A stretch of DNA of 64,000 nt from Patescibacteria group bacterium (GTDB taxonomy: Bacteria; Patescibacteriota; Minisyncoccia; Minisyncoccales; RBG-13-36-15), in contig JAHCSE010000001.1 of the NCBI GenBank assembly GCA_018609195.1, forward strand, positions 9,559-73,558, given 5' to 3'. Both the position numbers and the translations under genes were made by a program. This document shows, piece after piece, positions 4,471 through 63,544 of the stretch. Positions within the stretch are counted from its first letter, which is position 1. Every line of letters starts with the position of its first letter. The notes under the pieces were generated by a model. That model was not told the origin of the DNA. It was given only the letters and a program-made list of their open reading frames with translations, and ran no database searches.

Positions 4471-5159
4471 TTTAAAGCCTTTAAAATATCTTGAAAAACT
4501 GCCTCCACCGATTGTTCGCCATTAACTTCTTTTATTTGTAATCCGTGTTTTTTGAAATAATCTATCAAAGGAAGTGTTCTTTCTTGATATTCTTTTAATC
4601 TAACTTTAATCACTTCTCTGGTATCATCCTTACGAATTATTAATCTTGAACCATCTAAGGGACATTTTCTCAATTTGGCGGTTTCTTGTGTATACAAAAT
4701 CGGATGGCGCATTAACTTACAGATTCTTCTTCTTGTGCCTCTCCAGATAGATTGTTCTGGGCTTAATGTGATAAGAATTATTTTTATATTTGAGGCCTTA
4801 TATAATTTTTTTAGAAAAGGGGTAACTTCTTTCCCTTCGTATAGAGTCCGAGGAGAGCCGGCTATCGACAGTCCCTTCCCCACCTTTGCTAGTTCTTTAA
4901 TCTTATTTTTTATCCAAAAAACAATTAAAGGAGGACTCATTAGTTTTCCCCTCTCTCGCATTTTTTTTTCTTCAATTAAAAAATATTTCTTTCCTTTAAC
5001 AATAATAAAATCGTCTTTTTTAATATTTTTTAAATTAGCGTCGATAATCCTACTTGTCTCCAAGTAATACAAATTCAATTTCTCAGCTAATAACTCAGCT
5101 TGGGTCCCTTTCCCAGATCCCGGCGGCCCTAATAATATAATCACTTGTTTATTACTCAT
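4467..5159 (-). CDS. adk: Adenylate kinase (long form with Cys4 LID)
   Basis: 230 aa; GPPGSGKGTQ P-loop; LID region with RRICKLMRHP...CPLDGSRL zinc-type motif; conserved position secY-adk-map. Confidence 0.85.
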   Translation of the reverse strand: MSNKQVIILLGPPGSGKGTQAELLAEKLNLYYLETSRIIDANLKNIKKDDFIIVKGKKYFLIEEKKMRERGKLMSPPLIVFWIKNKIKELAKVGKGLSIAGSPRTLYEGKEVTPFLKKLYKASNIKIILITLSPEQSIWRGTRRRICKLMRHPILYTQETAKLRKCPLDGSRLIIRKDDTREVIKVRLKEYQERTLPLIDYFKKHGLQIKEVNGEQSVEAVFQDILKALK

Positions 5160-5178: not shown

Positions 5179-6465
5179 TTAAAAAGTTTCGTATTCTCGC
5201 ATTTGAAGTTGGGCTCTGACTTGACGCATAGTCTCTAAAACCACTGAAACCACAATAAGCAAGGCTGTCCCCCCCACCAGAAACTGGAAAAGCACCACCC
5301 CAGTTATACCTTGAACAATAATGGGTAAAACGGCAATTGTCCCTAAAAATAAAGCCCCAATTAATAAGATTCGATTTAAAACATAATATAAAAAGTTGGC
5401 GGTTGAAGGTCCTGGCCTGATGCCTGGGATAAATCCTCCCATTTTTTGCAAATTAGAGGAAATGGCTTTGGGGTCAAAGGTGACAGCTGTATAAAAATAG
5501 GTAAAAAGGCCGACTAAAAGAAAATAGAGAATTCCGTAACTCCAAGGGTTTCTGGCAGGGTCCACAATACTTCCTATGGTTTGAGCTATATTTGAAATCA
5601 TACCTTCCCCACCCGCTAAAAAACTGGCAATCATTCCTGGGAAAAGTAAGATAGATAAGGCAAAAATGATTGGAATAACACCAGCTGGATTGATATTTAA
5701 GGGTAAATAGGTGGAAACACCACCGTACATTCGCATACCCCTGACTCTTTTTGCATAAGAAACCGGAATATTTCTTCTGGCCTCATTTACTAAAACCACT
5801 CCGGCAATAATAGCTAAGGCCCCAGCAAAAAAGAGCAAATAGGCGGGAATCCTTGAAGGATCATAAGTAATAATCAGTTGGCGGATATTATTTGGAAGAG
5901 CAGAAACAATCCCAGCAAAAATTAAAAGGGAAATACCATTGCCAATCCCTTTTTCTGAGATTAACTCCCCGAGCCACATTAAAAAAACAGCTCCAGCAGC
6001 GACAGTCAAAAGAGAAGTTAAAAGAGAGATTGGAGAAAGAGTCCCAATAATATTTTGACGCTGAAGTAAAATGAGAAGCCCGTACCCTTGAAGAGTAGCG
6101 AAAGGAACAGTTAAAAGGCGCCCATATTGATTAAATTTTTGGCGCCCCGTCTCCCCCTCCTCTTTATAAAGCTTCTCTAGCTGAGGAAAAATCATTGTGA
6201 GCAACTGCAAAATAATAACTGAAGTAATATAAGGCCCCAATCCCAGCATGATAATGGAAAGGTTATCAAGGGCACCGCCGGTAAAAATATTTAATAATCC
6301 CAAAAGTTGATTGGCCTCAAAAAATTCCCTCATTCTTGCGAGATCAATTCCTGGAATAGGAATATTAGCCATTATTCGAAAAATGACAAAAATTCCCAAG
6401 ATAAACAAGATTTTGTTGCGGAGATCACGGATCTTAAATATTTGGATGATTTTTTGATACCACAT
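5179..6465 (-). CDS. secY: Preprotein translocase subunit SecY
   Basis: 428 aa, 10-TM profile, conserved operon position after rplO. Confidence 0.9.
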   Translation of the reverse strand: MWYQKIIQIFKIRDLRNKILFILGIFVIFRIMANIPIPGIDLARMREFFEANQLLGLLNIFTGGALDNLSIIMLGLGPYITSVIILQLLTMIFPQLEKLYKEEGETGRQKFNQYGRLLTVPFATLQGYGLLILLQRQNIIGTLSPISLLTSLLTVAAGAVFLMWLGELISEKGIGNGISLLIFAGIVSALPNNIRQLIITYDPSRIPAYLLFFAGALAIIAGVVLVNEARRNIPVSYAKRVRGMRMYGGVSTYLPLNINPAGVIPIIFALSILLFPGMIASFLAGGEGMISNIAQTIGSIVDPARNPWSYGILYFLLVGLFTYFYTAVTFDPKAISSNLQKMGGFIPGIRPGPSTANFLYYVLNRILLIGALFLGTIAVLPIIVQGITGVVLFQFLVGGTALLIVVSVVLETMRQVRAQLQMREYETF

Positions 6466-13696: not shown

Positions 13697-14113
13697 TTAT
13701 CTTGGCAACACTTCAATTTTTTGTCCCTCTTTTATTTTGACTATTGCTTTTTTATATCCTTTTCTCCAGCCAGTTATTCTCCCTAATCTTCTCCTTTTTT
13801 GAGGAATCTTTATAATTTTAACATCTACGACCTTCACTCCATAAAGACCTTCAATTACCCTTTTAATCTCAATCTTATTAGATCTGGAATAAACTTTAAA
13901 AACGTATTGATTTTTTTTAGTCAAATCGGTAGCTTTCTCTGTGATATGGAGGGATTTTAATATTCGATAGGCATGAAGGGGAATTCCCTTTCTCTCAATT
14001 CTTTTTTCTTCTGGAGGAATTTCAGGTTCTCTCACTTCCTTCACCTTCTTTTCTGGAATTTCTCTTTTCTCTTTTTTAATTTTTTTCTTTCGAAAACGGT
14101 CTAAAATTCCCAT
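13697..14113 (-). CDS. rplW: 50S ribosomal protein L23 with N-terminal extension
   Basis: 138 aa; YVFKVYSRSNKIEIKRVIEGLYGVKV. Confidence 0.85.
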   Translation of the reverse strand: MGILDRFRKKKIKKEKREIPEKKVKEVREPEIPPEEKRIERKGIPLHAYRILKSLHITEKATDLTKKNQYVFKVYSRSNKIEIKRVIEGLYGVKVVDVKIIKIPQKRRRLGRITGWRKGYKKAIVKIKEGQKIEVLPR

Positions 14114-14132
14114 ATTGTTATTACAGAGCGAA

Positions 14133-14276
14133 GTCGCTCGCCCTCCTCCAGCCTTTGGCTGGCGGTCGCCTTCGGCGACCTTCGGGCTCGCTCTTTAGAA
14201 ACCCTCGGTTTCTAACACTCGCTTCGCTTGCTGTTTTCCTACACGGGAGAACCTATGGTTCTCCCGACCCCTCTCC
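14133..14276 (+). repeat. GC-rich structured element family A, copy A1 (overlaps the rplD 3' end)
   Basis: GTCGCTCGCCCTCCTCCAG..hairpin GGTCGCC-TTC-GGCGACC..TAGAAACC-CTC-GGTTTCTA..CTGTTTTCCTACACGGGAGAACC-TATG-GGTTCTCCCGACCCCTC. Confidence 0.8.
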
Positions 14277-14923
14277 ATTTTGGGCAGCAAATTGGGTTTC
14301 AGGAATGTCTCTTTTATTATATTTATTGATTCTTTAGGTATTAATAAATATTTGAAAGAAAGTAAGTCCAAGGGATTTAAATCTTTAGTCTGGGTAGTTT
14401 CTACTTTAGGAATATTTTTTGAGGCTCTAATGACAGCTTCCTCTTTTGTAGGAAGAGCAATCAAACAAGATGCTTTTTTTATTGGTAGATTATTTAAAAT
14501 CTCAACAATCAATTTTGTCTTTGGTTTATCTAATTTTAAAGAATCCAAAAGAACTATTAAATTTTCTTTAGCTTTCGTTGATAATACCATAAACAAAGCT
14601 TTTCTTCTCATTTTTTTAGGAATTTTTTGCTTAAAAACTCTCGTTTTTCTTGGTCCAAAAGTGATTCCTCCTCCTCGCCAGATTGGAGAACGAATAGAGC
14701 CTGCCCTCGCTCTCCCTGTTCCTTTTTGCCGCCAGGGTTTTCTTCCTCCACCCCGAACCTCAGCTCTAATTTTGGTATGAGCGATAGGAATCCTTCTATT
14801 TGCCATCTGGCTCACCACTACCTGATGTACTAAATCAGGATTGATTTTCACATCAAAAATTTCTTTTGGTAATGAAGTTTTCCCAACTTCTTTTCCTTCT
14901 TGATTGTAAGTCTTAATAAACAT
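14195..14923 (-). CDS. rplD: 50S ribosomal protein L4; the last ~27 codons are encoded by repeat element A1
   Basis: 242 aa vs ~205 typical; C-terminal MERGRENHRFSRVGKQQAKRVLETEGF is read from the GC-rich element. Confidence 0.85.
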   Translation of the reverse strand: MFIKTYNQEGKEVGKTSLPKEIFDVKINPDLVHQVVVSQMANRRIPIAHTKIRAEVRGGGRKPWRQKGTGRARAGSIRSPIWRGGGITFGPRKTRVFKQKIPKKMRRKALFMVLSTKAKENLIVLLDSLKLDKPKTKLIVEILNNLPIKKASCLIALPTKEEAVIRASKNIPKVETTQTKDLNPLDLLSFKYLLIPKESINIIKETFLKPNLLPKMERGRENHRFSRVGKQQAKRVLETEGF

Positions 14924-14932
14924 AAGTTAATA

Positions 14933-15078
14933 GCGAGGGTAAGTTTTTCAAAGAGCATCTCGGAGGCATCGCTGGCATGGTGTCCGAGCGCAACGAGGAA
15001 CAGCGACGCCGAGAGTTGAACAAAATTTTCCTCGCTGGGGAAAATTATTGTGTCTCTTTGAGGAAGCTTTGCCCGAAC
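14933..15078 (+). repeat. GC-rich structured element family B, copy B1 (rplC-rplD spacer)
   Basis: About 92% identical to 20289..20435; nested inverted repeats CTCGGAGGCRTCGCTG / CAGCGACGCCGAGAG and TCAAAGAG / CTCTTTGA. Confidence 0.8.
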
Positions 15079-15080
15079 GC

Positions 15081-15674
15081 TTATCCTCTAATTTCAAGCA
15101 GTGTTCCTTTTGCTCCTGGTACTGCTCCCTTCACTGCTAATAAATTATTTTCTGCATCAACTTTCACAACTTTTAAATTTTTCACTGTAACTCTTTCAAA
15201 GCCCATTCTGCCTGGCATTTTTTTTCCTTTAATCACTCTCTCTGGGAATGAAGAACCAACAGATCCCGGAGTTCTGGCTTCATGCTTTACTCCGTGAGAA
15301 GCTCCTCTTCCAGCAAATCCCCATCTTTTGACTACTCCGGCAAATCCTTTTCCTTTTGAGATACCAGAAATTTTCACTTTTTCTCCTTCCTCAAAAATTG
15401 AAACATCAATCTTTTGCCCTTCTTTAAAATCCTTTGCTTTATTTTTAAATTCTCTTAGAAATCTGAAAGGTTTTTTCCTCAGTGGTTTTTTAATCCGCTT
15501 TTTTTTCTCTATTTTTTTAAAACCGAGTTGAATAGCTTCGTACCTATCTTTTTCTTCGGTCTTCACTTGCGTGACAAAACAGGGGCCAGCCTCGATTACT
15601 GTTACTGACAAGACATTACCTTTTTCATCAAATATCTGGGACATTCCTAATTTTTGACCAAGAATAAACTTCAT
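15081..15674 (-). CDS. rplC: 50S ribosomal protein L3
   Basis: 197 aa; MKFILGQKLGMSQIFDEKGNVLSVTVIEAGPC. Confidence 0.9.
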   Translation of the reverse strand: MKFILGQKLGMSQIFDEKGNVLSVTVIEAGPCFVTQVKTEEKDRYEAIQLGFKKIEKKKRIKKPLRKKPFRFLREFKNKAKDFKEGQKIDVSIFEEGEKVKISGISKGKGFAGVVKRWGFAGRGASHGVKHEARTPGSVGSSFPERVIKGKKMPGRMGFERVTVKNLKVVKVDAENNLLAVKGAVPGAKGTLLEIRG

Positions 15675-15678
15675 ACTT

Positions 15679-15745
15679 TCCTACGAATTACTCTATCGCT
15701 AAGCGACTCCCCGGAGGGTTGATATTTGCGAATATACGAATAATA
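15679..15745 (-). promoter_or_regulatory. TTCGTA-repeat leader/promoter motif upstream of rplC
   Basis: Minus-strand TATTCGTATATTCGCA...GTAATTCGTAGGAAAGT-ATG. Confidence 0.45.
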
Positions 15746-15871
15746 ATTTTCCAACAAAATACCGGGCACTAACCCGGTACTTTATTTTGTAGGTTAGTTA
15801 ATTTTATAATTTTATAAATTTTTGAAATAATTATTTCTTATCATAATGAGATAAAAAATATATTCGTAGGT

Positions 15872-15900
15872 ATCTACATTTTTATTTCGATATCACCTCC
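15872..15900. repeat. 29-nt near-exact duplicate of the rpsJ 3' end (direct repeat flanking element A2)
   Basis: atctacatttttatttcgatatcacctcc vs atctacatttttatttcgatgtcaactcc at 16007..16035. Confidence 0.8.
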
Positions 15901-15996
15901 GTCGCTCCGCTCCTTAGAAACCCGCGGTTTCTAACGCTCGCTTCACTCGCTGTTTTCCTACACGGGGAGACACCCAGTCTCCCCGACCCCTTCTGT
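15901..15996 (+). repeat. GC-rich structured element family A, copy A2 (short form, immediately after the rpsJ stop)
   Basis: GTCGCTCCGCTCC..TAGAAACC-CGC-GGTTTCTA..CTGTTTTCCTACACGGGGAGAC-ACCCA-GTCTCCCCGACCCCTTC. Confidence 0.8.
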
Positions 15997-16009
15997 GCGG
16001 AGTTGCCAT

Positions 16010-16354
16010 CTACATTTTTATTTCGATGTCAACTCCGGCTGGTAAATTTAAATTCATCAGAGAATCGATCACTTTTGAGCTAGGATTTAAAATATCAATG
16101 AGTCTTTTGTGAATTCTCGTTTCAAACTGTTCTCGGGCATCTTTGTGGATAAAAGAAGATCTATTGACGGTGTATTTGTGAATTTCAGTTGGTAAGGGGA
16201 CAGGTCCCGAGACCTCCGCCCCATATCTTAAAACAGTCTCCACAATCTGCCGAGCACTGCTATCTATAACTTTGTGGTCATAGGCTTTAAGCCTTATCCT
16301 AATCCTTGGCTTAACTTCTTCCTCAATTTCTTTTGATTTTTCCTTAACTTTCAT
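16010..16354 (-). CDS. rpsJ: 30S ribosomal protein S10
   Basis: 114 aa; [14 protein letters not shown]... Confidence 0.9.
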
Positions 16355-16458
16355 CTTAAAAAGGACAAAAAATTTTTAGGTTTTAGCGTTTAGGATCTAG
16401 GTCTATTAAGTGATATTAAATTTAAAAAAACTCGACGCTAAAACCTAGGCGCTAGACC

Positions 16459-17658
16459 CTATTTCACTATCTTCGTCACCACTCCTGCCCCCACTGTCTT
16501 TCCTCCCTCTCTGATGGCAAATCTTTGTTTTTCTTCCAAGGCGATAGGAAAAATTAATTTGATCTTCAAATTAACCGTATCCCCTGGCATAACCATTTCT
16601 GTACCTTCTAGTAAAGTTACCTCTCCTGTAACATCGGTGGTCCGGAAATAAAATTGGGGTTTATAACCAGAAAAGAAAGGAGTATGCCTTCCCCCTTCTT
16701 CTTTCGTTAGCACATAGACTTCTCCTTCAAAATCAGTATGGGGGGTAATTGAACCCGGTTTAGCTAGAACCTGACCTCTTTCCACTTCTTCTTTTTTTAA
16801 TCCCCTTACTAAGATTCCAACATTATCTCCTGCTCTTCCTTCGTCAAGTATTTTGTTAAACATTTCAATACTCACAACCACAGTTTTAATAGTAGGTCGC
16901 AAACCAACCAGTTCAACTTCTTCATTAGGGTGAACTATTCCCCGTTCGATTCTGCCCGTAGCCACCGTTCCTCTCCCTGCAATAGAGAAAACATCTTCAA
17001 TAGCCATCAAAACGGGTTTATCAATTTCTCTCACTGGTTCTGGAATAAAATCATCTAAGGCTTTAACCAAATCCAAAATTGGTTTAGCTTTTTCATCATC
17101 AGGGGAACTGGCCTCCAAGGCTTTCAAAGCCGATCCTCTAATTATTGGAGTTTTATCTCCTGGGAAACCATATTTTTTCAAAAGCTCCCTGAGTTCTGAC
17201 TCCACTAAGTTAATCATCTCTTGATCTTCTACGAGATCGCATTTATTCAAGAAAATAACAATTGAAGGCAGACCAACCTGTCTTGCTAATAAAATGTGTT
17301 CTCTAGTCTGGGGCATGGGGCCATCAGGAGCAGAAACTACTAGAATTGCTCCATCCATTTGAGCAGCTCCCGTAATCATGTTTTTGATGTAATCTGCATG
17401 GCCTGGACAATCAATATGAGCGTAGTGTCTTTTCTCGGTCTCGTATTCAACGTGAGTAATATTGATAGTCAATCCTCGAGCCCTTTCTTCGGGAGCTGAA
17501 TCAATTTCCTCCACTGTCTTTTTTGAGGTCCGCAATCCTTTTAACCCCAAGATTTTCAAAATAGCGGCAGTCAGCGTAGTCTTTCCATGATCGACATGGC
17601 CAATTGTCCCTACGTTGAGATGGGGTTTTACCCTTTCAAATTTTTCTTTCTCTGCCAT
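16459..17658 (-). CDS. tuf: Elongation factor Tu
   Basis: 399 aa; [22 protein letters not shown]. Confidence 0.95.
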
Positions 17659-17847
17659 TTTGTAAGAGCTTCTAGGTTCTCGCTTCTAGGTTTTAGAAAT
17701 TTACTAATTATCTATAAGCTGAAAGCTAAAAGCTGATCTTATATTATTATCTTAGTAAACCCTGAAAAATAGTCAAGCTAGTTTACTAACTAATTTCCTT
17801 TGTATCAAAAATTCCTAACGGGGTCAATAGATTGGTTGTGGATTATC

Positions 17848-17925
17848 CTATTTCCTCTTTCCCTCAATGATCTCCTGAGTAATATTCTGAGGTACTTCTC
17901 CGTAATGGTCGAATTCCATCGTAAA
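17848..17925 (-). pseudogene. Diverged in-frame duplicate of the last ~25 codons of fusA, downstream of element A3
   Basis: Encodes ...[25 protein letters not shown] vs the genuine fusA end [25 protein letters not shown]; nucleotide identity is low at synonymous sites. Confidence 0.7.
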
Positions 17926-18097
17926 GTCGCTCCGCTCCTCCAGTCTTCGGCTGGCGCTCCCCGCCAACATCTTCGAAGTTGTGGCGGGTCGCTTCGCTCC
18001 GCTCCCCAGACACCTCTCGGTTTCTGGCGGTCGTCGCTTCGCTCCTCCCTGTTTTCCTACACGGGAAAACACCCAGTTTTCCCGACCCCTTTCTGCT
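17926..18097 (+). repeat. GC-rich structured element family A, copy A3 (between the fusA stop and its duplicated 3' end)
   Basis: GTCGCTCCGCTCCTCCAG..long hairpin CCCGCCAACATCTTCGAAGTTGTGGCGGG..CTGTTTTCCTACACGGGAAAAC-ACCCA-GTTTTCCCGACCCCTTTCTG. Confidence 0.8.
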
Positions 18098-18120
18098 TCA
18101 CTATGGAGTTTTATCTAAAA

Positions 18121-20256
18121 TTATCTCCGTTTGCCTTCTATAATTTCTTGTGCGATGTTCCCTGGCACTTCACCGTAGTGATCAAACTCCATAGTAAACG
18201 TTCCTCGGCCTTCGGTCATCGATCGCAAAGCTGTGGCATAACCAAACATCTCAGCCAGAGGAACTTTAGCTGAAATTATTTTCAAATTTAACCTATCTTT
18301 TGTTTCTTCAATCTTCCCCCTCCTCGCTCCTAAATCCCCAATAGTATCTCCAAAAAATTCAGAAGGAATAATTACTTCTAATCTCATTATCGGTTCAAGT
18401 AAAATAGGTTTTGCTCTTTTGGCGGCCGTTTGCAAAGCAGCAGATGCAGCTATCTTGAAAGCAAATTCTGAGGAATCAACCTCATGATAGGAACCATCAT
18501 AAAGAGTCACTTCGATGTCAACCATAGGATAGCCTGCAGTTATCCCTTTTTCCATAGCTTCCTTCACTCCTTTTTTCACAGCGGGGATAAATTCTTTTGG
18601 GATGATTCCTCCTTTAATCTCGTCGATAAATTCAAATCCCTCTCCTCGTGTTTTGGGCCGAATTTTCAAGAAAACATGACCATATTGGCCTCTGCCGCCT
18701 GATTGTCTAATATATTTTCCTTCAGCTGAAGTTTCCTCTTTTATTGTTTCTTTATAGGCAACCTGAGGTCTTCCGGATGAAGCTTCCACCTTAAATTCTC
18801 TTCTCATTCGATCATTAATTATCTCTAAATGGAGCTCCCCCATTCCTGAGATAATAGTTTCTCCCGTTTCTAAATCACTTTTAATTTTAAAAGTGGGGTC
18901 TTCCTCAGCCAATCTTTTCAAAGCTAAACTCATTTTCTCTTGGTCGGCCTTCGTTTTCGGTTCAATTCGAATGGAAATGACAGGTTCTGGAAAGGTAATT
19001 TTTTCTAAGACAATGGGGTTATCAGGGTCACAAAGAGTATGACCAGTACTAGTTTTTTTTAATCCAACCGTAGCCCCAATATCTCCAGCGAAAAACTCTT
19101 GTACTTCCTCACGATCTGCCGCATGCATCCTTAAAATTCTCCCAATTCTCTCTTTCTCGCCCGTAGTTGCATTTAATACATAAGAACCTCTTTTTAAGCT
19201 ACCTGCATAAACTCGGAAATAATTTAAAGTTCCAACATAAGGATCAGCAGCAGATTTAAAAACCAAAGCGGAAAATGATTCTGAATCTAAAACTTTTCTT
19301 TCAATTTCCTGACCATTTCGAGGATCAACTCCTCTCACCGGAGGTAAATCCAAGGGGCTAGGCAAAAAATTCACAATTCCATCTAAGAGAGGCTGAATTC
19401 CTTTATTTCTCAAAGCTGATCCACAAAATACCGGGATGAGTTTGTAGGAAATTGTGGCTTTTCTCAATACTTCTCTCAATTCATTGATTGAAATTTCCTT
19501 TTTGGCTAAGTATTTCTCTAAAAGTTTCTCATCTTCAGCTGCAATTTTCTCCACTAATTTTTCTCGCCACTCTTTAGCGATCTTGCGCAAATTTTCAGGT
19601 ATCTCTTCTTCAACAACATTCTGGCCAAAGTCACCTTCAAATTTTAAGGCTCGCATTGTAAAGAGATCAATCACTCCTTCAAAATTTTCCTCGCTACCAA
19701 TTGGTAATTGAAGAACCACCGCCTGGGGAGATAATTTTTCCCAAATTGATTGCAAGCTCTTTTCAAAAGAAGCTCCTGTCCTATCCATTTTATTGATAAA
19801 GCAAATTCTGGGAACAGAAAATCTATCTGCTTGATGCCATACCGTCTCAGATTGAGGTTCTACTCCTGCTACTCCATCGAAAATCACTACCGCCCCATCC
19901 AAAACTCGCAAAGATCTTTGTACTTCCGCTGTAAAATCAATATGGCCAGGAGTATCAATAATGTTTATTCGATACTCATCTTTTTTGCTTTTTTCTTTGG
20001 ATTGACCGGGGGCGGTGTGTGGGTGATAGGTGGATGGAGTCCAAAAACAAGTAGTGGCTGCAGCTGTAATAGTAATTCCCCTTTCTTTTTCTTGAATCAT
20101 CCAATCCATTATTGCCTCCCCTTCATGAACTTCTCCAATTTTATGAGAAATTCCAGTATAGAAAAGCACCCGCTCAGTAACGGTTGTTTTCCCAGCATCG
20201 ATATGAGCAATAATACCAATATTGCGAGTTCGTTCTATTGGATACAAACGAGGCAT
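18121..20256 (-). CDS. fusA: Elongation factor G
   Basis: 711 aa; AHIDAGKTT, full EF-G domain set. Confidence 0.95.
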
Positions 20257-20288
20257 AATTTGTAGAAGCGGATTTACGCGGATCTAAA

Positions 20289-20435
20289 GCGAGGGTAAGC
20301 TTCTCAAAGAGCATCTCGGAGGCGTCGCTGGCAAGGTGTCCGAGTAAAGCGAGGAACAGCGACGCCGAGAGTTGAACAAAATTTTCCTCGCTGGGAAAAA
20401 TTATTGTGTCTCTTTGAGGGGGCTTTGCCCGAGCG
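20289..20435 (+). repeat. GC-rich structured element family B, copy B2 (fusA 5' side)
   Basis: Near-identical to B1 (14933..15078). Confidence 0.8.
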
Positions 20436-20452
20436 AATCACCAAGCCAAATG

Positions 20453-20612
20453 GTCGCTCGCCCTCCTCCAGCGCAGAGCGCTGGCGGACGCCTTTGGCGT
20501 CCTTCGGGCTCACTCCCCAGACACCTCTCGGTTTCTGGCGCTCCTTCGCTTTCGCTCAGTCACTGTTTTCCTATACGGGGAAACACCCAGTTTCCCCGAC
20601 CCCTTTCTGCCA
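20453..20612 (+). repeat. GC-rich structured element family A, copy A4 (abuts the rpsG stop)
   Basis: GTCGCTCGCCCTCCTCCAG..GGACGCC-TTT-GGCGTCC (compensatory vs A1)..CTGTTTTCCTATACGGGGAAAC-ACCCA-GTTTCCCCGACCCCTTTCTG. Confidence 0.8.
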
Positions 20613-20619
20613 CTTTGCG

Positions 20620-21087
20620 TTACCACGCAAAGTGGGCAAAAGCTCTATTCGCCTCTGCCATCCTGTGAGTATTTTCTTTCTTTTTCACTGCCCAGCCAGT
20701 GTTATTTGCGGCTTCTATCATTTCTTCAGCCAATTTCTCTCTCATTGGTTTTCCTTTTCTTGATTTGGCAGCTTGGATAATCCAACGCATAGCTAAAGTT
20801 AGCCTTCTTTCCCCTTTCACTTCTCTCGGAACCTGATAGGTAGCACCTCCAATTCTTTTCGCTTTAACCTCAAGTAAGGGGGAGGCATTTTTCAGAGCCT
20901 GATCAAAAACTTCCAAGGGGTCTTTTTTCGTTTTTCCTTTAATTATATCAAAGGCCTGATAAACAATTCTTCTCGCCAGCATCTTTTTCCCTCGCCGCAT
21001 TACCTGATTGATAAACTTTGATACAATGATGTTATTGTAAACCGGGTCAGATGTAATTTCCCTTTTTTCTTTTTTCTTCCTCCTCAT
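20620..21087 (-). CDS. rpsG: 30S ribosomal protein S7
   Basis: 155 aa; ends AFAHFAW. Confidence 0.9.
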
Positions 21088-21501: not shown

Positions 21502-21504
21502 AAA

Positions 21505-21545
21505 CCCTACGAATTACGAATCAGTACGAATATACGAATAAATTT
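21505..21545 (-). promoter_or_regulatory. TTCGTA-repeat leader/promoter motif upstream of rpsL
   Basis: Minus-strand TATTCGTATATTCGTACTGATTCGTAATTCGTAGGGTTT-ATG. Confidence 0.45.
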
Positions 21546-21549
21546 CCCC

Positions 21550-21575
21550 GACCCCTTCCGACGTGGGCTGCTATT
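21550..21575 (+). repeat. Fragment of element A 3' tail (TTTCCCCGACCCCTTCC)
   Basis: Matches the terminal arm and tail of copies A1-A4. Confidence 0.5.
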
Positions 21576-35679: not shown

Positions 35680-35830
35680 AAAAATGTGTCCTCCTCCGTT
35701 AAAACTTTGGAGGACATGGATGGCATTCTGACTTTCACAGTTACGGCATAGTCCCGGATTTCCTGCCCGCATCGCTATACGAAGTATTGCAGGCGGGTCA
35801 CCGGAGTTCCCCATCCGTTTTCAAAGTCCG
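35680..35830 (-). ncRNA. Candidate cobalamin riboswitch in the 5' leader of the B12-uptake/nrdJ gene string
   Basis: Minus-strand GGGGAACTCCGGTGACCCGCC ... GGAAATCCGGGACTATGCCGTAACTGTGA resembles GGGAAnnnGGTGa / AAnTCC / CCGCnACnGTnA cores; GC-rich and structured. Confidence 0.4.
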
Positions 35831-40858: not shown

Positions 40859-41692
40859 TTAACCTATGCACAGCTCTCTCGCTTCCTTCTGAAGTTTTTT
40901 GACAGCCCTTGGCTGAAGGCCAATTATTTGAACTAAATCGTATAATGAATATTTTAATATATCTTTAGCTAACATCAGTTTCTTTTCAGCTAATCTCTGT
41001 CTGGCGTATTTCGTAAGCGAAGGTAAAATCGTAATCGGGTAAAGTCCCTTCTTCTCAATTAAATACTCCAAGCTTTCATCTCTCGGATAGTGCCAACCAA
41101 TGATTTTCAAACCGACACAGCGAGCATAGCCAATTGCCTCACTCGTGCATCTGGTATTCGTTACCAACCAAGCTTGATGAAAATGCTGCCCTTTTTCTCT
41201 GATTTTTTCCCAAGCCTTTTTTATATCTAAAAATCTGGCAAAAGTATACAAAGCTACTTTTATATCAGAACGGCTCCCCCGGCTATTGTGATATTTGCAC
41301 TCAACCATAAAATGCTTTTTTCCTTTCTGGGCAATGACATCAATTTCATGACGAACACAATATCCCCTCACTATTCTTCCTATTTTTGTATTATAACCAT
41401 ATCCTCTTAAAATTTCTGAAACGTATTTTTCAAAAAGAAAACCAGCTGGCCCCAATTTCATAATCGCTCTTTTTAGATTATATCGAGCAGCTAATATGGG
41501 ATTTTCTCTTCTCAGGCATTGCGTAACTTGACTCAAAATCTTTCCCGAACTATCGCCGGGGACAATAGTTCTGGCCACCTCCTGACAAACTTCTTGAGCC
41601 AGTTTTGGCTGAACGCCAACCCGTTTGAGGGAGCTATAGATTTTCTCTTTGCTGAATTTTTCTTTCTCACCTGAAGCTTTGATTATATCCAT
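40859..41692 (-). CDS. ATP-cone domain fused to a PD-(D/E)xK (Mrr-like) restriction-endonuclease domain
   Basis: N-terminal IIKASGEKEKFSKEKIYSSLKRVG (ATP-cone); then HEIDVIA...MVECKYH nuclease motifs. Confidence 0.6.
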   Translation of the reverse strand: MDIIKASGEKEKFSKEKIYSSLKRVGVQPKLAQEVCQEVARTIVPGDSSGKILSQVTQCLRRENPILAARYNLKRAIMKLGPAGFLFEKYVSEILRGYGYNTKIGRIVRGYCVRHEIDVIAQKGKKHFMVECKYHNSRGSRSDIKVALYTFARFLDIKKAWEKIREKGQHFHQAWLVTNTRCTSEAIGYARCVGLKIIGWHYPRDESLEYLIEKKGLYPITILPSLTKYARQRLAEKKLMLAKDILKYSLYDLVQIIGLQPRAVKKLQKEARELCIG

Positions 41693-63346: not shown

Positions 63347-63386
63347 TCTCTTTTATTGTATTGGAATTTTAATTCCGATACAACAC

Positions 63387-63510
63387 AGGAGGGGTCGGGA
63401 GGATTGGGTATCCTCCCGTATAGGAAAACAGGCTTTCAGGTGAGCGAAGCGAAGACTGAAAACGTTAGAAACCGTGGGTGTCTAAAGAACATGGTGCCGA
63501 GCGTTAGCGA
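63387..63510 (-). repeat. GC-rich structured element family A, copy A5 in inverted orientation
   Basis: Reverse complement reads ...GGTTTCTAACG..CGCTTCGCTCAC..CTGTTTTCCTATACGGGAGGATACCCAATCCTCCCGACCCCTCCTG. Confidence 0.75.
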
Positions 63511-63544
63511 GGTCTATGTTCTTATACCGCATTTTATTCACAAA

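Follow-up and report, generated by a model that had tools for sequence, protein, structure and literature searches.

Several spacers of a ribosomal-protein and elongation-factor operon in this genome hold GC-rich structured elements, and we asked what they are and how they came to lie there. We built a covariance model of the more frequent type, family A, from 60 copies and searched the window, i.e. the whole 64-kb stretch of DNA analysed. Exactly five full copies were found (A1-A4 and A6, 84-96 bits). A 5' fragment in the rpsL leader, missed by the covariance model, and two copies of a second type, family B, were also located, so that all elements lie where the original prediction had put them. 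Pfam agreed with its gene names, identifying the operon genes as L23, L4, L3, S10, EF-Tu, EF-G, S7 and S12. The motifs and hairpin variants that it cited were found in the sequence, and the GC islands that it described were recovered (GC 0.55-0.68 in the elements, about 0.25-0.45 in their surroundings). The strand had to be corrected: all operon copies lie on the minus strand, in gene sense. In the list below, D1 and D2 are the upstream and downstream copies of a duplicated host sequence, and the third strand is a purine run next to the first hairpin, P1.

14111..14284, minus: whole A1, 'leader' class, with 5' module and third strand at 14272-14284
14187-14279, minus: A1 covariance-model match, between rplD and rplW
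14133-14271, minus: A1 core
14111-14132, minus: A1 3' module, ending in the rplW ATG
14932..15079, minus: B1, between rplC, whose stop it immediately follows, and rplD
15872..16037, minus: A2 with its target duplication (empty site in loci L004 and L046)
15906-15998, minus: A2 covariance-model match, after rpsJ
16008-16037, minus: A2 D1, the rpsJ end and stop
15998-16005, minus: A2 target-complementary segment CAACTCCG
15991-15997, minus: A2 third strand
15902-15990, minus: A2 core
15872-15901, minus: A2 D2
17848..18198, minus: A3 at the fusA C-terminus (empty site in L046)
17998-18097, minus: A3 covariance-model match, after fusA
18121-18198, minus: A3 D1, the last 25 fusA codons and stop
18097-18112, minus: A3 target-complementary segment AAAACTCCATAGTGAA
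18090-18096, minus: A3 third strand
17926-18089, minus: A3 core
17848-17925, minus: A3 D2, a relic copy of 26 codons with about 70% nucleotide identity
20288..20435, minus: B2, between the relic rpsG stop (D2 of A4), which it immediately follows, and fusA
20438..20635, minus: A4 at the rpsG end (empty site in L046)
20509-20611, minus: A4 covariance-model match, after rpsG
20620-20635, minus: A4 D1 CCACTTTGCGTGGTAA
20610-20619, minus: A4 target-complementary segment CGCAAAGTGG
about 20604-20609, minus: A4 third strand
20454-20603, minus: A4 core
20438-20453, minus: A4 D2 CCATTTGGCTTGGTGA
21543..21567, minus: 3'-truncated family A 5' fragment in the rpsL leader (5' module, third strand and start of P1)
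63356..63522, plus: whole A6, lying between the thyX end and the nth start and antisense to both
63383-63493, plus: A6 covariance-model match
63356-63383, plus: A6 upstream palindrome
63384-63390, plus: A6 third strand
63391-63522, plus: A6 core

Hairpins P1, P2 and P3, with optional additional hairpins, form on the element strand (GGGGTCGGG...GAGCGAC). Over 60 distinct copies the pairing of P1 and P3 was 99%, and it collapsed when the partner column was slid. Changes on both sides of these stems filled 114 cells compared with 28.7 in shuffled data (0 of 500 shuffles were as high), confirming the hairpin covariation first noticed in the window. The 6-8 purines immediately 5' of P1, separated from it by a linker of 1-2 nt, mirror and covary with the P1 purine strand (A·A-T and G·G-C triples). 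At mirror columns 8/18, 7/19 and 6/20, respectively, 50, 58 and 59 of 60 copies had the same base; shuffles had means of 28-38, and none of 2000 reached the observed counts. All three strands were concordant in seven distinct sequence states. Three consecutive blocks that could supply G·G-C and A·A-T triples thus lie on one strand, and we infer that the third strand and P1 form a putative triple helix. Intrastrand purine-motif triplexes have been demonstrated by CD and NMR for the TMECO/BoxC repeats (PMC4666352).

A second feature of the element strand is the word GCGNAGC, found 52 times compared with 7.3 +/- 2.8 in dinucleotide shuffles, while its complement occurs only 6 times on the same strand. 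GCGNAGC and AGCGN words are abundant in the 3' part of the element. GCGNAGC mini-hairpins are much more stable as DNA than as RNA, resist nucleases and are poorly bound by SSB (PMC13037366). The triple-strand pattern and these words are no less suggestive of folded single-stranded DNA than of a non-coding RNA. At gathering score no Rfam family matched the elements anywhere in the window, in keeping with the original view that this is not a known RNA family: r-protein leaders, riboswitches, ribozymes, omega-RNAs and retron RNAs had no curated covariance-model match. Apart from hits at chance level, the only matches were one tRNA and an AdoCbl riboswitch located elsewhere in the window. Group I and II introns were rejected: between 13600 and 21800 their cores (RF00028 and RF00029) gave no match, even at E values as high as 10, and Patescibacteria are reported to lack group II introns (PMC13011429).

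The host sequence around the copies carries clear scars of insertion. A de novo insertion sits at a conserved host sequence X, and the order is gene body, D1, an inverted copy of the start of D1, element, D2. The inserted DNA thus has the inverted X copy (8-20 nt) at its 5' end, and its 3' end (..GCGAC) is flush with X. In about 25-30 copies D1 begins exactly at X and D2 exactly past ..GCGAC. The direct duplication D starts at the insertion point, extends as far as the host gene does and measures 16-112 nt (16, 18-30, 52, 66, 73-78 and 93-112 nt). Because D duplicates the gene end, the essential host gene stays intact: D1 completes it and D2 is a relic. D1 and D2 are identical or nearly so in recent events (66/66 in L009, about 111/112 in L007, also L004 and L054). 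The elements are intercistronic, as originally described, but three of them lie within duplicated gene ends and not simply in spacers; in addition, the rplD reading frame continues 31 codons into A1, with its stop at 14195.

Exact complementarity of at least 9 nt between the 5' segment and its target was found in 11 copies compared with 1.95 expected, and in 9 of the 11 X' directly follows the element 3' end (GCGAC, GCGAT or the GCGAAGCG variant). D1 matches the 5' segment better than D2 does. In L004 and L073 the segment mismatches both local X copies, indicating that it was inherited and not copied locally; the L004 mismatch is the allele present in the window's D2. A3, A4 and L065 have closely related cores with unrelated 5' segments and a sharp boundary between the two. 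The 5' segment could be a by-product of insertion instead of a guide. About half of the copies (the 'leader' class and a palindrome class) have no D1/D2. The leader class ends in a conserved module, GCGAC-TGACTTAGTAGT-ACCA-CT, in direct contact with a start codon, a tRNA 5' end or the 16S leader. Most can be learned from three features that the original prediction lacked: the duplicated gene ends, the triple-strand covariation and the target-complementary segment.

Host genes include EF-G, S10, S7 and tRNAs (T-arm). Three targets recur: the fusA C-terminus (in the window, where A3 occupies it, and in L002, L004 and L073), the fusA G1-motif region in antisense (L007 and L060) and the T-arm of about 10 tRNAs. 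Empty sites were identified in L004 (rpsJ end, rplD/rplW) and L046 (fusA, rpsG and rpsJ ends), and junctions without elements in close relatives have compact spacers. Two observations at tRNA targets are not predicted by a simple insertion model. The tRNA class has an additional insert in D2, and these short inserts resemble the element 3' end only; L019, compared with L057, looks like a block copy that includes D2 up to the tRNA CCA end. Some tRNA insertions have separate terminators beside them.

Contrary to the original proposal, family A was not specific to this lineage. We found at least 72 loci, containing 82 covariance-model matches, all in Patescibacteria genomes except for one on a short contig binned as Aminicenantia; because the loci were sampled with a strict pattern for the core, they under-represent the diversity of the family. 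The elements are about 95-190 nt long, encode no protein and occur singly or in direct tandem, with a tandem array in L073. None was found in the viral contigs, phage records or plasmid records searched. No recurrent neighbouring ORF was present at the 72 loci, the roughly 60 ORFs of the window included no transposase, reverse transcriptase (RT) or integrase, and no integrase, RT or Y1 transposase lay near any of the 72 loci. No autonomous insertion sequence with the same ends was found across 72 x 8 kb of loci and the 64-kb window.

The reading that we favour, with a probability of roughly 55%, is that family A is a Patescibacteria-wide, small, protein-less mobile element that acts as folded single-stranded DNA and is placed by target pairing. 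On this best reading it is a new, previously undescribed kind of non-autonomous mobile element; the empty sites in relatives and the target duplications bear out the original suggestion of mobility. A mechanism can be inferred from the insertion scars. The active form would be folded single-stranded DNA, whose 5' segment would pair with X and so bring the element 3' end to the bond that precedes X. At this bond joining or priming would take place; together with fill-in and a second break at varying distance, it would give duplications of variable length. The enzymes would come in trans from the host replisome or repair machinery or be some other protein. Homologous recombination in the conserved genes on either side may then carry established copies from one lineage to another, and recombination between D1 and D2 could remove a copy precisely.

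Alternatively, the elements could be host-useful cis-acting RNA modules of polycistronic transcripts, with spread being secondary. The 5' segment and X/X' stems would then be processing or stability sites (e.g. for RNase III) and the 'leader' class would provide the translation start region, as the abutment of its 3' module on start codons, tRNA 5' ends and the 16S leader might suggest. The better fit of the 5' segment to X of the functional D1 agrees with this, as does a closed four-way junction predicted for element and flanks (z-scores -2.6 to -6.6). Among 54 copies with two scorable neighbours, 42 (78%) were co-oriented with both genes, which is equally compatible with co-transcription or a replication-strand bias, but 12 were antisense to both, including A6 and the fusA 5' insertions. 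No signature of an RNA strand was found: G-U pairs filled only 3 of 954 pair cells, and sense and antisense strands had equal folding energy. RNA supports purine-motif triples and GCGNAGC words poorly (PMC13037366), pairing of X would compete with tRNA T-arm folding, and the same junctions are element-free and compact in close relatives. We consider RNA modules unlikely.

A SINE-like retroelement, in which read-through element RNA is copied by a trans-acting RT at a nicked target (target-primed reverse transcription, TPRT), would account for duplications ranging over 16-112 nt, since priming at a nick makes them variable. The D2 inserts at tRNA targets look like 5'-truncated copies, the block copy seen in L019 versus L057 resembles 3' transduction, and the array in L073 would also fit. 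Yet no RT lies in the window or near any of the 72 loci, the G-U signature of RNA is missing, there is no A-rich or other tail, and the rpsL fragment is truncated at its 3', not its 5', end. We regard this origin as quite improbable.

Even less probable is movement as single-stranded DNA by a Y1 (HUH) RAYT/TnpA encoded elsewhere, family A being a REP/BIME-like or IS200/IS605-derived palindrome-associated element. Its structure is hairpin-rich and strand-asymmetric, GTAG occurs inside the invariant CCCGTGTAGGAAAACAG block, and the orientation bias is compatible with insertion into one replication strand. IS200/IS605 cleavage sites are recognised by pairing with an element-internal guide, a precedent for base-pairing. 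However, IS200/IS605 and REP elements use a fixed 4-5 nt target and make no duplication, compared with differing 8-20 nt targets and 16-112 nt duplications here, which also rejects an IS200/IS605-derived PATE. The unit is 95-190 nt with at least three distinct hairpins and no inverted pairs, not a 20-40 nt GTAG palindrome, and the window has no RAYT (Y1 transposase) gene, nor was one found near the 72 loci. A MITE is contradicted by the range of duplication lengths and by the ends (GGGGTCGGG.. and ..GAGCGAC), which are not inverted repeats; the sole inverted segment is the target copy, which differs per site. The earlier label 'MITE/REP-like' does not fit.

Finally, att-site scars of integrase-driven islands or phages at gene 3' ends, or ordinary r-protein leaders or terminators, can hardly explain the data, although integrase targets typically have a tRNA or protein gene 3' end duplicated with the gene kept intact and the elements are intercistronic in r-protein operons: between D1 and D2 lies always the same structured element of only 100-190 nt, without integrase or cargo and beside unrelated genes in many genomes, no Rfam leader matches, and neither P1-P3 nor the 3' end is followed by a T run.

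Family B is a separate and older structured intercistronic element of about 150 nt, located directly after stop codons. B1 and B2 are 92% identical, reproducing the earlier value, and the nested stem-loop described for them is conserved in 5 copies from 3 genomes, with double changes at 17 pairs. It occurs only in close relatives.

Compared with known systems, family A resembles MITEs, REP/BIME, ERIC, BOX, Correia, RPEs and MIRUs in being short, protein-less, multi-copy and structured, and it shares the intercistronic operon positions of bacterial small interspersed repeats. Like Rickettsia palindromic elements it can extend a reading frame (A1 adds its 31 codons to L4), like mycobacterial MIRUs it can abut start codons, and like BOX elements it is modular. 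It differs from all these in having no terminal inverted repeats of its own or fixed short duplication, and in its target-derived inverted segment, its duplications, which regenerate gene ends and reach 112 nt, its insertion at conserved positions within essential genes and its triple-strand covariation. With TMECO/BoxC (PMC4666352) it shares purine, purine and pyrimidine blocks in one DNA strand repeated in the genome, and with single-strand initiation signals and hairpin promoters (PMC13037366) the GCGNAGC words. Its sequence differs from that of TMECO, as does the order of its blocks (third strand, 1-2 nt, purine, loop, pyrimidine), the triplex blocks lie in a larger multi-hairpin element, and it has covariation over seven states and clear insertion scars, whereas no target duplication or target-complementary segment is described for TMECO.

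Placement by pairing is known from the guide tetranucleotides of IS200/IS605, EBS/IBS of group II introns and the omega-RNA of TnpB/IscB, and family A likewise has a segment complementary to the insertion-point sequence and flush with the junction. This segment is 8-20 nt compared with 4-5 in IS200/IS605 and pairs 3' of the insertion point; there is no intron core, ORF, Rfam match or associated nuclease or transposase gene, and the pairing-guided systems make no long target duplication. LINE/SINE-type TPRT, which is not known from bacteria, shares variable duplications, possible truncated copies, possible 3' transduction and non-autonomy, but for family A no RT was found, and a tail and an RNA-type pairing signature are missing. 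Tyrosine-integrase islands and casposons target and restore the 3' ends of tRNA or EF-2/EF-G genes. Family A also uses conserved tRNA and elongation-factor gene ends, with a duplicated end that keeps the gene intact; those elements span kilobases, carry an integrase or casposase and have a fixed duplication or att core, whereas in family A the whole insert consists of about 100-190 nt of hairpin element.

We searched the window with a covariance model built from 60 copies of family A, a small GC-rich structured repeat, and recovered five full copies (A1-A4 and A6). The str/S10 ribosomal cluster (rpsL, rpsG, fusA, tuf, rpsJ, rplC, rplD and rplW by Pfam) occupies 12-22 kb on the minus strand.

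Family A and family B elements in the window (full family A copies by the covariance model from 60 copies)
14187-14279, minus strand: full family A copy A1
15906-15998, minus strand: full family A copy A2 (rpsJ)
17998-18097, minus strand: full family A copy A3 (fusA)
20509-20611, minus strand: full family A copy A4 (rpsG)
63383-63493, plus strand: full family A copy A6
21543-21567: 25-nt 5' fragment of family A in the rpsL leader
14932-15079: family B copy B1, 92% identical to B2
20288-20435: family B copy B2, 92% identical to B1

By covariance model, coordinates and GC content, everything that the original prediction had placed here (family A copies, fragment, family B pair and GC islands) was present, with a GC fraction of 0.55-0.68 in the elements against a background of about 0.25-0.45. 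The rplD (L4) frame was found to continue 31 codons into A1 (14195-14290, minus strand), with its stop inside P3, the third hairpin of the element. The L4 Pfam domain ends at residue 205 of 242, and in L004, a locus from a genome ~80% identical to the window, L4 ends four codons past the shared ETFLK.

A pattern scan (GGGGTCGGG-N13-19-CCGTRTAGGAAAACAG) in which each species was represented by a single genome matched 72 loci, in which the covariance model identified 82 family A copies. The matches fell in Patescibacteria MAGs of Parcubacteria/Paceibacteria groups, e.g. Nealson-, Niyogi- and Staskawiczbacteria, the single exception being a short contig binned as Aminicenantia, which is probably mis-binned. 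Viral contigs, phage records and plasmid records yielded no copies. Rfam returned nothing relevant over the elements, at gathering score or at E up to 10. Literature searches by sequence words and by topic found no description of family A, their sole yield being a Patescibacteria group I intron survey that concerns different elements. A species-specific 22-mer, run against metagenomes for population variants, gave 0 hits; the fusA-site pattern found one metagenomic locus, L073.

In gene sense, family A starts with a purine stretch followed by GGGG-T-C and hairpin P1. An invariant joiner (GTRTAGGAAAACAG) leads from P1 to the highly variable hairpin P2, after which come CG, P3 (NNAGAAACC..GGTTTCTNN), RGAGCG, 0-3 extra hairpins and the 3' end ..GAGCGAC. 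The predicted covarying stems held in the wider alignment: P1 and P3 were 99% paired over 60 distinct copies, and both sides had changed in 114 pair cells compared with 28.7 in shuffles (0/500 shuffles reached the observed value). Sliding the partners lowered P1/P3 pairing to 28-62%. The P3 loop can hold an extra hairpin of ~45 nt (at 6130-6180 of locus L072 and at the contig end of L018), so the loops of the scaffold can accommodate cargo.

Immediately 5' of GGGGT lie 6-8 nt, here called the third strand, that mirror the purine strand of P1 with the T as centre. Columns 8/18, 7/19 and 6/20 were identical in 50, 58 and 59 of the 60 copies, respectively, against shuffle means of 28-38; none of 2000 shuffles reached the observed counts, and sliding abolished the match. 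Seven distinct sequence states were found in which third, purine and pyrimidine strands were all concordant. The mirror pattern is of the type expected for a putative purine-motif triple helix (G·G-C, A·A-T); read on the opposite strand, it would correspond to a pyrimidine-motif triplex. The word GCGNAGC occurred 52 times in 75 elements compared with 7.3 +/- 2.8 in dinucleotide shuffles, an excess that partly reflects (AGCGN)n repeats, and its complement occurred six times on the same strand. G-U pairs were almost absent (3/954 pair cells), and neither folding energy nor G-U counts distinguished sense from antisense as RNA. Intrastrand purine-motif triplex repeats of the TMECO/BoxC type have been physically verified as DNA (PMC4666352), and DNA mini-hairpins of the GCGNAGC type have extraordinary stability, much greater than that of their RNA counterparts, as well as nuclease resistance and poor binding by SSB (PMC13037366). 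Together, the covariation, the words, the lack of an RNA signature and these published DNA motifs suggest that the folded form, in which family A probably acts, is single-stranded DNA of the GGGG...GCGAC strand.

We found a common flank plan in ~30 of 75 copies: gene body, D1 (X + R), 0-50 nt, an inverted X of 8-20 nt, third strand, element and D2 (X' + R'). Here D1 and D2 are the upstream and downstream copies of a duplicated host gene end, X is the host sequence at the insertion point and X' its D2 copy. In these copies D1 starts exactly at X and D2 exactly after ..GCGAC.

Duplicated gene ends and inverted segments at three window copies
A2 (rpsJ): D1 16008-16037; inverted segment CAACTCCG; D2 15872-15901
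A3 (fusA): D1 18121-18198; inverted segment AAAACTCCATAGTGAA; D2 17848-17925
A4 (rpsG): D1 20620-20635; inverted segment CGCAAAGTGG; D2 20438-20453

The D copies are 16 to 112 nt long. Because they are identical or nearly so in young events (66/66 in L009, about 111/112 in L007, also L004 and L054), D is a target duplication and not foreign DNA. In every case it extends to the host gene end, be it a stop codon or the 3' end of a tRNA. Upstream of the element, the essential gene that was interrupted is whole, and D2 is a relic. Exact complementarity of at least 9 nt between 5' flank and downstream sequence was detected in 11 copies, compared with 1.95 expected from permuted pairs, and in 9 of the 11 the match begins directly after the element 3' end. 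The element strand with its flanks folds as a closed four-way junction (z-scores -2.6 to -6.6).

Empty sites were found in related loci. The rpsJ end of L004 carries no element and reads ...GGAGTTGATATCGAAATAAAAATGTGACCATAG..., and the same locus has none between rplD and rplW; L046, from a more distant genome, has compact empty sites at the ends of rpsG, fusA and rpsJ. Targets recurred as well: the FTMEFDHY-coding fusA end (window, L002, L004, L073), the fusA G1-motif region in antisense (L007, L060) and the T-arm of about ten different tRNAs. Tandem arrays in L073 and L031 are the product of re-insertion into D or else of unequal exchange between copies of D. At 2140-2260 of L031, in a tandem array after tRNA-Lys, the second copy looks circularly permuted (CCCCCGTGTTGGAAAATAG ... 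P3 ... TGGGGGTCGGGGG).

In favour of a guide role, the inverted segment abuts the junction without a gap. It is mismatched to both local X copies in L004 and L073, the L004 mismatch being the window D2 allele; the segment therefore came with the element by inheritance and is no copy of the local target. In the window, the fusA segment matches D1 at 14/16 positions and D2 at 11/16, the distinction falling at the three positions where D1 and D2 differ. These two copies differ at ~22 of 78 nt and in only 3 of 26 codons, suggesting that D1, segment and element came jointly by homologous recombination from another lineage, with D2 as the resident allele. From such junctions we infer that the 5' segment guides insertion, and likewise the order of the strand-joining steps. 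As a counterpoint to a guide role, ~90% identical cores (A3, A4 and locus L065) carry unrelated segments, with a sharp boundary.

About 20 copies elsewhere share with A1 a 'leader' arrangement, with a 5' module ACCCAYATCGGARR and a 3' module GCGAC-TGACTTAGTAGT-ACCA-CT that directly adjoins start codons of unrelated genes, tRNA 5' ends or the 16S leader. No duplication was visible in this class. Its four-way junction and ACCA tail invited a tRNA-like reading, which was not adopted, since neither a T-loop-like nor a D-loop-like motif is present and the class lacks a consistent closing stem; nor was the 3' module taken for a promoter, for want of consistent -35/-10 elements. In a palindrome class (A6, L015, L017, L048, L052), X lies adjacent to its inverted copy. 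The D2 T loop of tRNA-targeted copies holds a 10-16 nt insert resembling the element 3' end. Two loci of one MAG, L019 (3850-4070, minus strand) and L057 (3150-3350), have a block in common that begins 43 nt before the element and runs through to the CCA end of D2; their P2 hairpins are completely different, and L019 lacks the upstream tRNA. P2 behaves as an exchangeable module, and sequence downstream may be carried along by the element.

Family B was found in five copies, two in the window, two in L004 and one in L002, and was absent from L046. It folds into an outer stem (CGCTCGGGCAAAGC..GCTTACCCTCGCT), an inner stem (TCAAAGAG..CTCTTTGA) and two hairpins, with both sides changed in 17 pairs. 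The copies follow immediately on the native stop codon of the preceding gene, which is rplC, relic rpsG or relic fusA. The window and L004 share both family B junctions, so family B was in place before the A insertions at these sites. It showed neither a duplication nor a strand signature.

Several other features were recorded in the window. The 5' leaders of rpsL and rplC (..TAATTCGTAGG..ATG; 21502-21550 and 15675-15745, minus strand) carry 3-4 copies of the heptamer ATTCGTA. In L046 the motif also precedes fusA and tuf (2790-2870, 4510-4570), and it recurs after rpsJ in the form of TACGAAT repeats. It may serve as a leader or translation signal particular to this lineage, whose genomes are mostly without Shine-Dalgarno sequences. 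At 16380-16460 and 17660-17700 there are imperfect inverted repeats (AGGTTTTAGCGT / ACGCTAAAACCT) of the rpsJ-tuf spacer and CTAGAAGC repeats of the tuf leader, and a sigma-70-like promoter (TTGACT-17-TAAGAT) upstream of tuf is kept in L004, L046 and L073. A 32-nt repeat ending in AAAAACCGCCTTCTTGGCGATT, with a small hairpin (CGCC..GGCG), follows genes at five places (26286, 26710, 27716, 28925, 57445) and is possibly a terminator family. An AdoCbl-II riboswitch (35713-35827, minus strand, 39.1 bits) lies upstream of a cluster of DUF4430, DUF6580, class II ribonucleotide reductase and BtuR (corrinoid adenosyltransferase). The ORF at 40859-41692 (minus strand) combines an ATP-cone, an Mrr-like restriction endonuclease fold and an AF1548-like C-terminal domain. 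Paralogous blocks at 52.4-54.1 kb and 55.4-57.7 kb, each with an ArsR-type regulator, a DsbD-like membrane protein and neighbours, are 70-92% identical in stretches.

When all ORFs near the 72 loci were clustered, the only recurrent families were host genes (fusA, rpsG etc.); a small GIY-YIG protein occurred in 3/72 loci, too few to count. Pfam found no transposase, integrase, reverse transcriptase, TnpB or HUH protein among about 60 window ORFs. Relative to both neighbours, 42 copies have the same orientation and 12 the opposite one.

Of the earlier 'MITE/REP-like or ncRNA' proposal, the mobile structured repeat stands; those defining features of MITEs, REPs, IS200/IS605 derivatives, introns and known RNA families that were sought in family A were not found. 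[quoted passage not shown] Several step-by-step insertion models (Okazaki-fragment capture, fold-back priming, partial reverse splicing) each fail to fit all junction features. A diversity-generating retroelement, with D1/D2 as template and variable repeats, was rejected because D1 and D2 do not differ specifically at adenines and housekeeping genes are the targets.

The family, its fold, triple-strand covariation, strand-asymmetric words, junction anatomy, empty sites and recurrent targets are shown by the data and are best accounted for by a new kind of non-autonomous element, which a complementary 5' segment would position at conserved targets and whose long, variable duplications regenerate the gene end. 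A bolder proposal, to which we give roughly one chance in eight, casts family A as a sequence-programmed 'homing oligonucleotide' with no protein gene. It would be a folded single-stranded DNA that selects its insertion site by base pairing through a 5' segment of 10-20 nt, with a scaffold of triple helix and mini-hairpins to recruit, or even stand in for, the strand-joining activity. Altering the 5' segment would then retarget the element to new conserved sites, which would make it a programmable DNA insertion system of a new class, carried by the smallest of bacterial genomes.

The covariance model permits annotation of family A elements, which account for several oddities of CPR assemblies: 'long spacers', duplicated gene ends, extended ORFs and pseudo-tRNA fragments. 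If the main reading holds, family A would also mark a trans-acting activity in minimal-genome organisms, and a natural case of triple-strand covariation would make a functional triplex directly testable. It would be a widespread Patescibacteria mobile element that enters conserved sites in essential genes (EF-G, S10, S7, tRNA T-arms), possibly programmed by its target-complementary segment, and spares the host by duplicating the gene end, with an insertion chemistry unlike that of any described prokaryotic transposon, intron or repeat.
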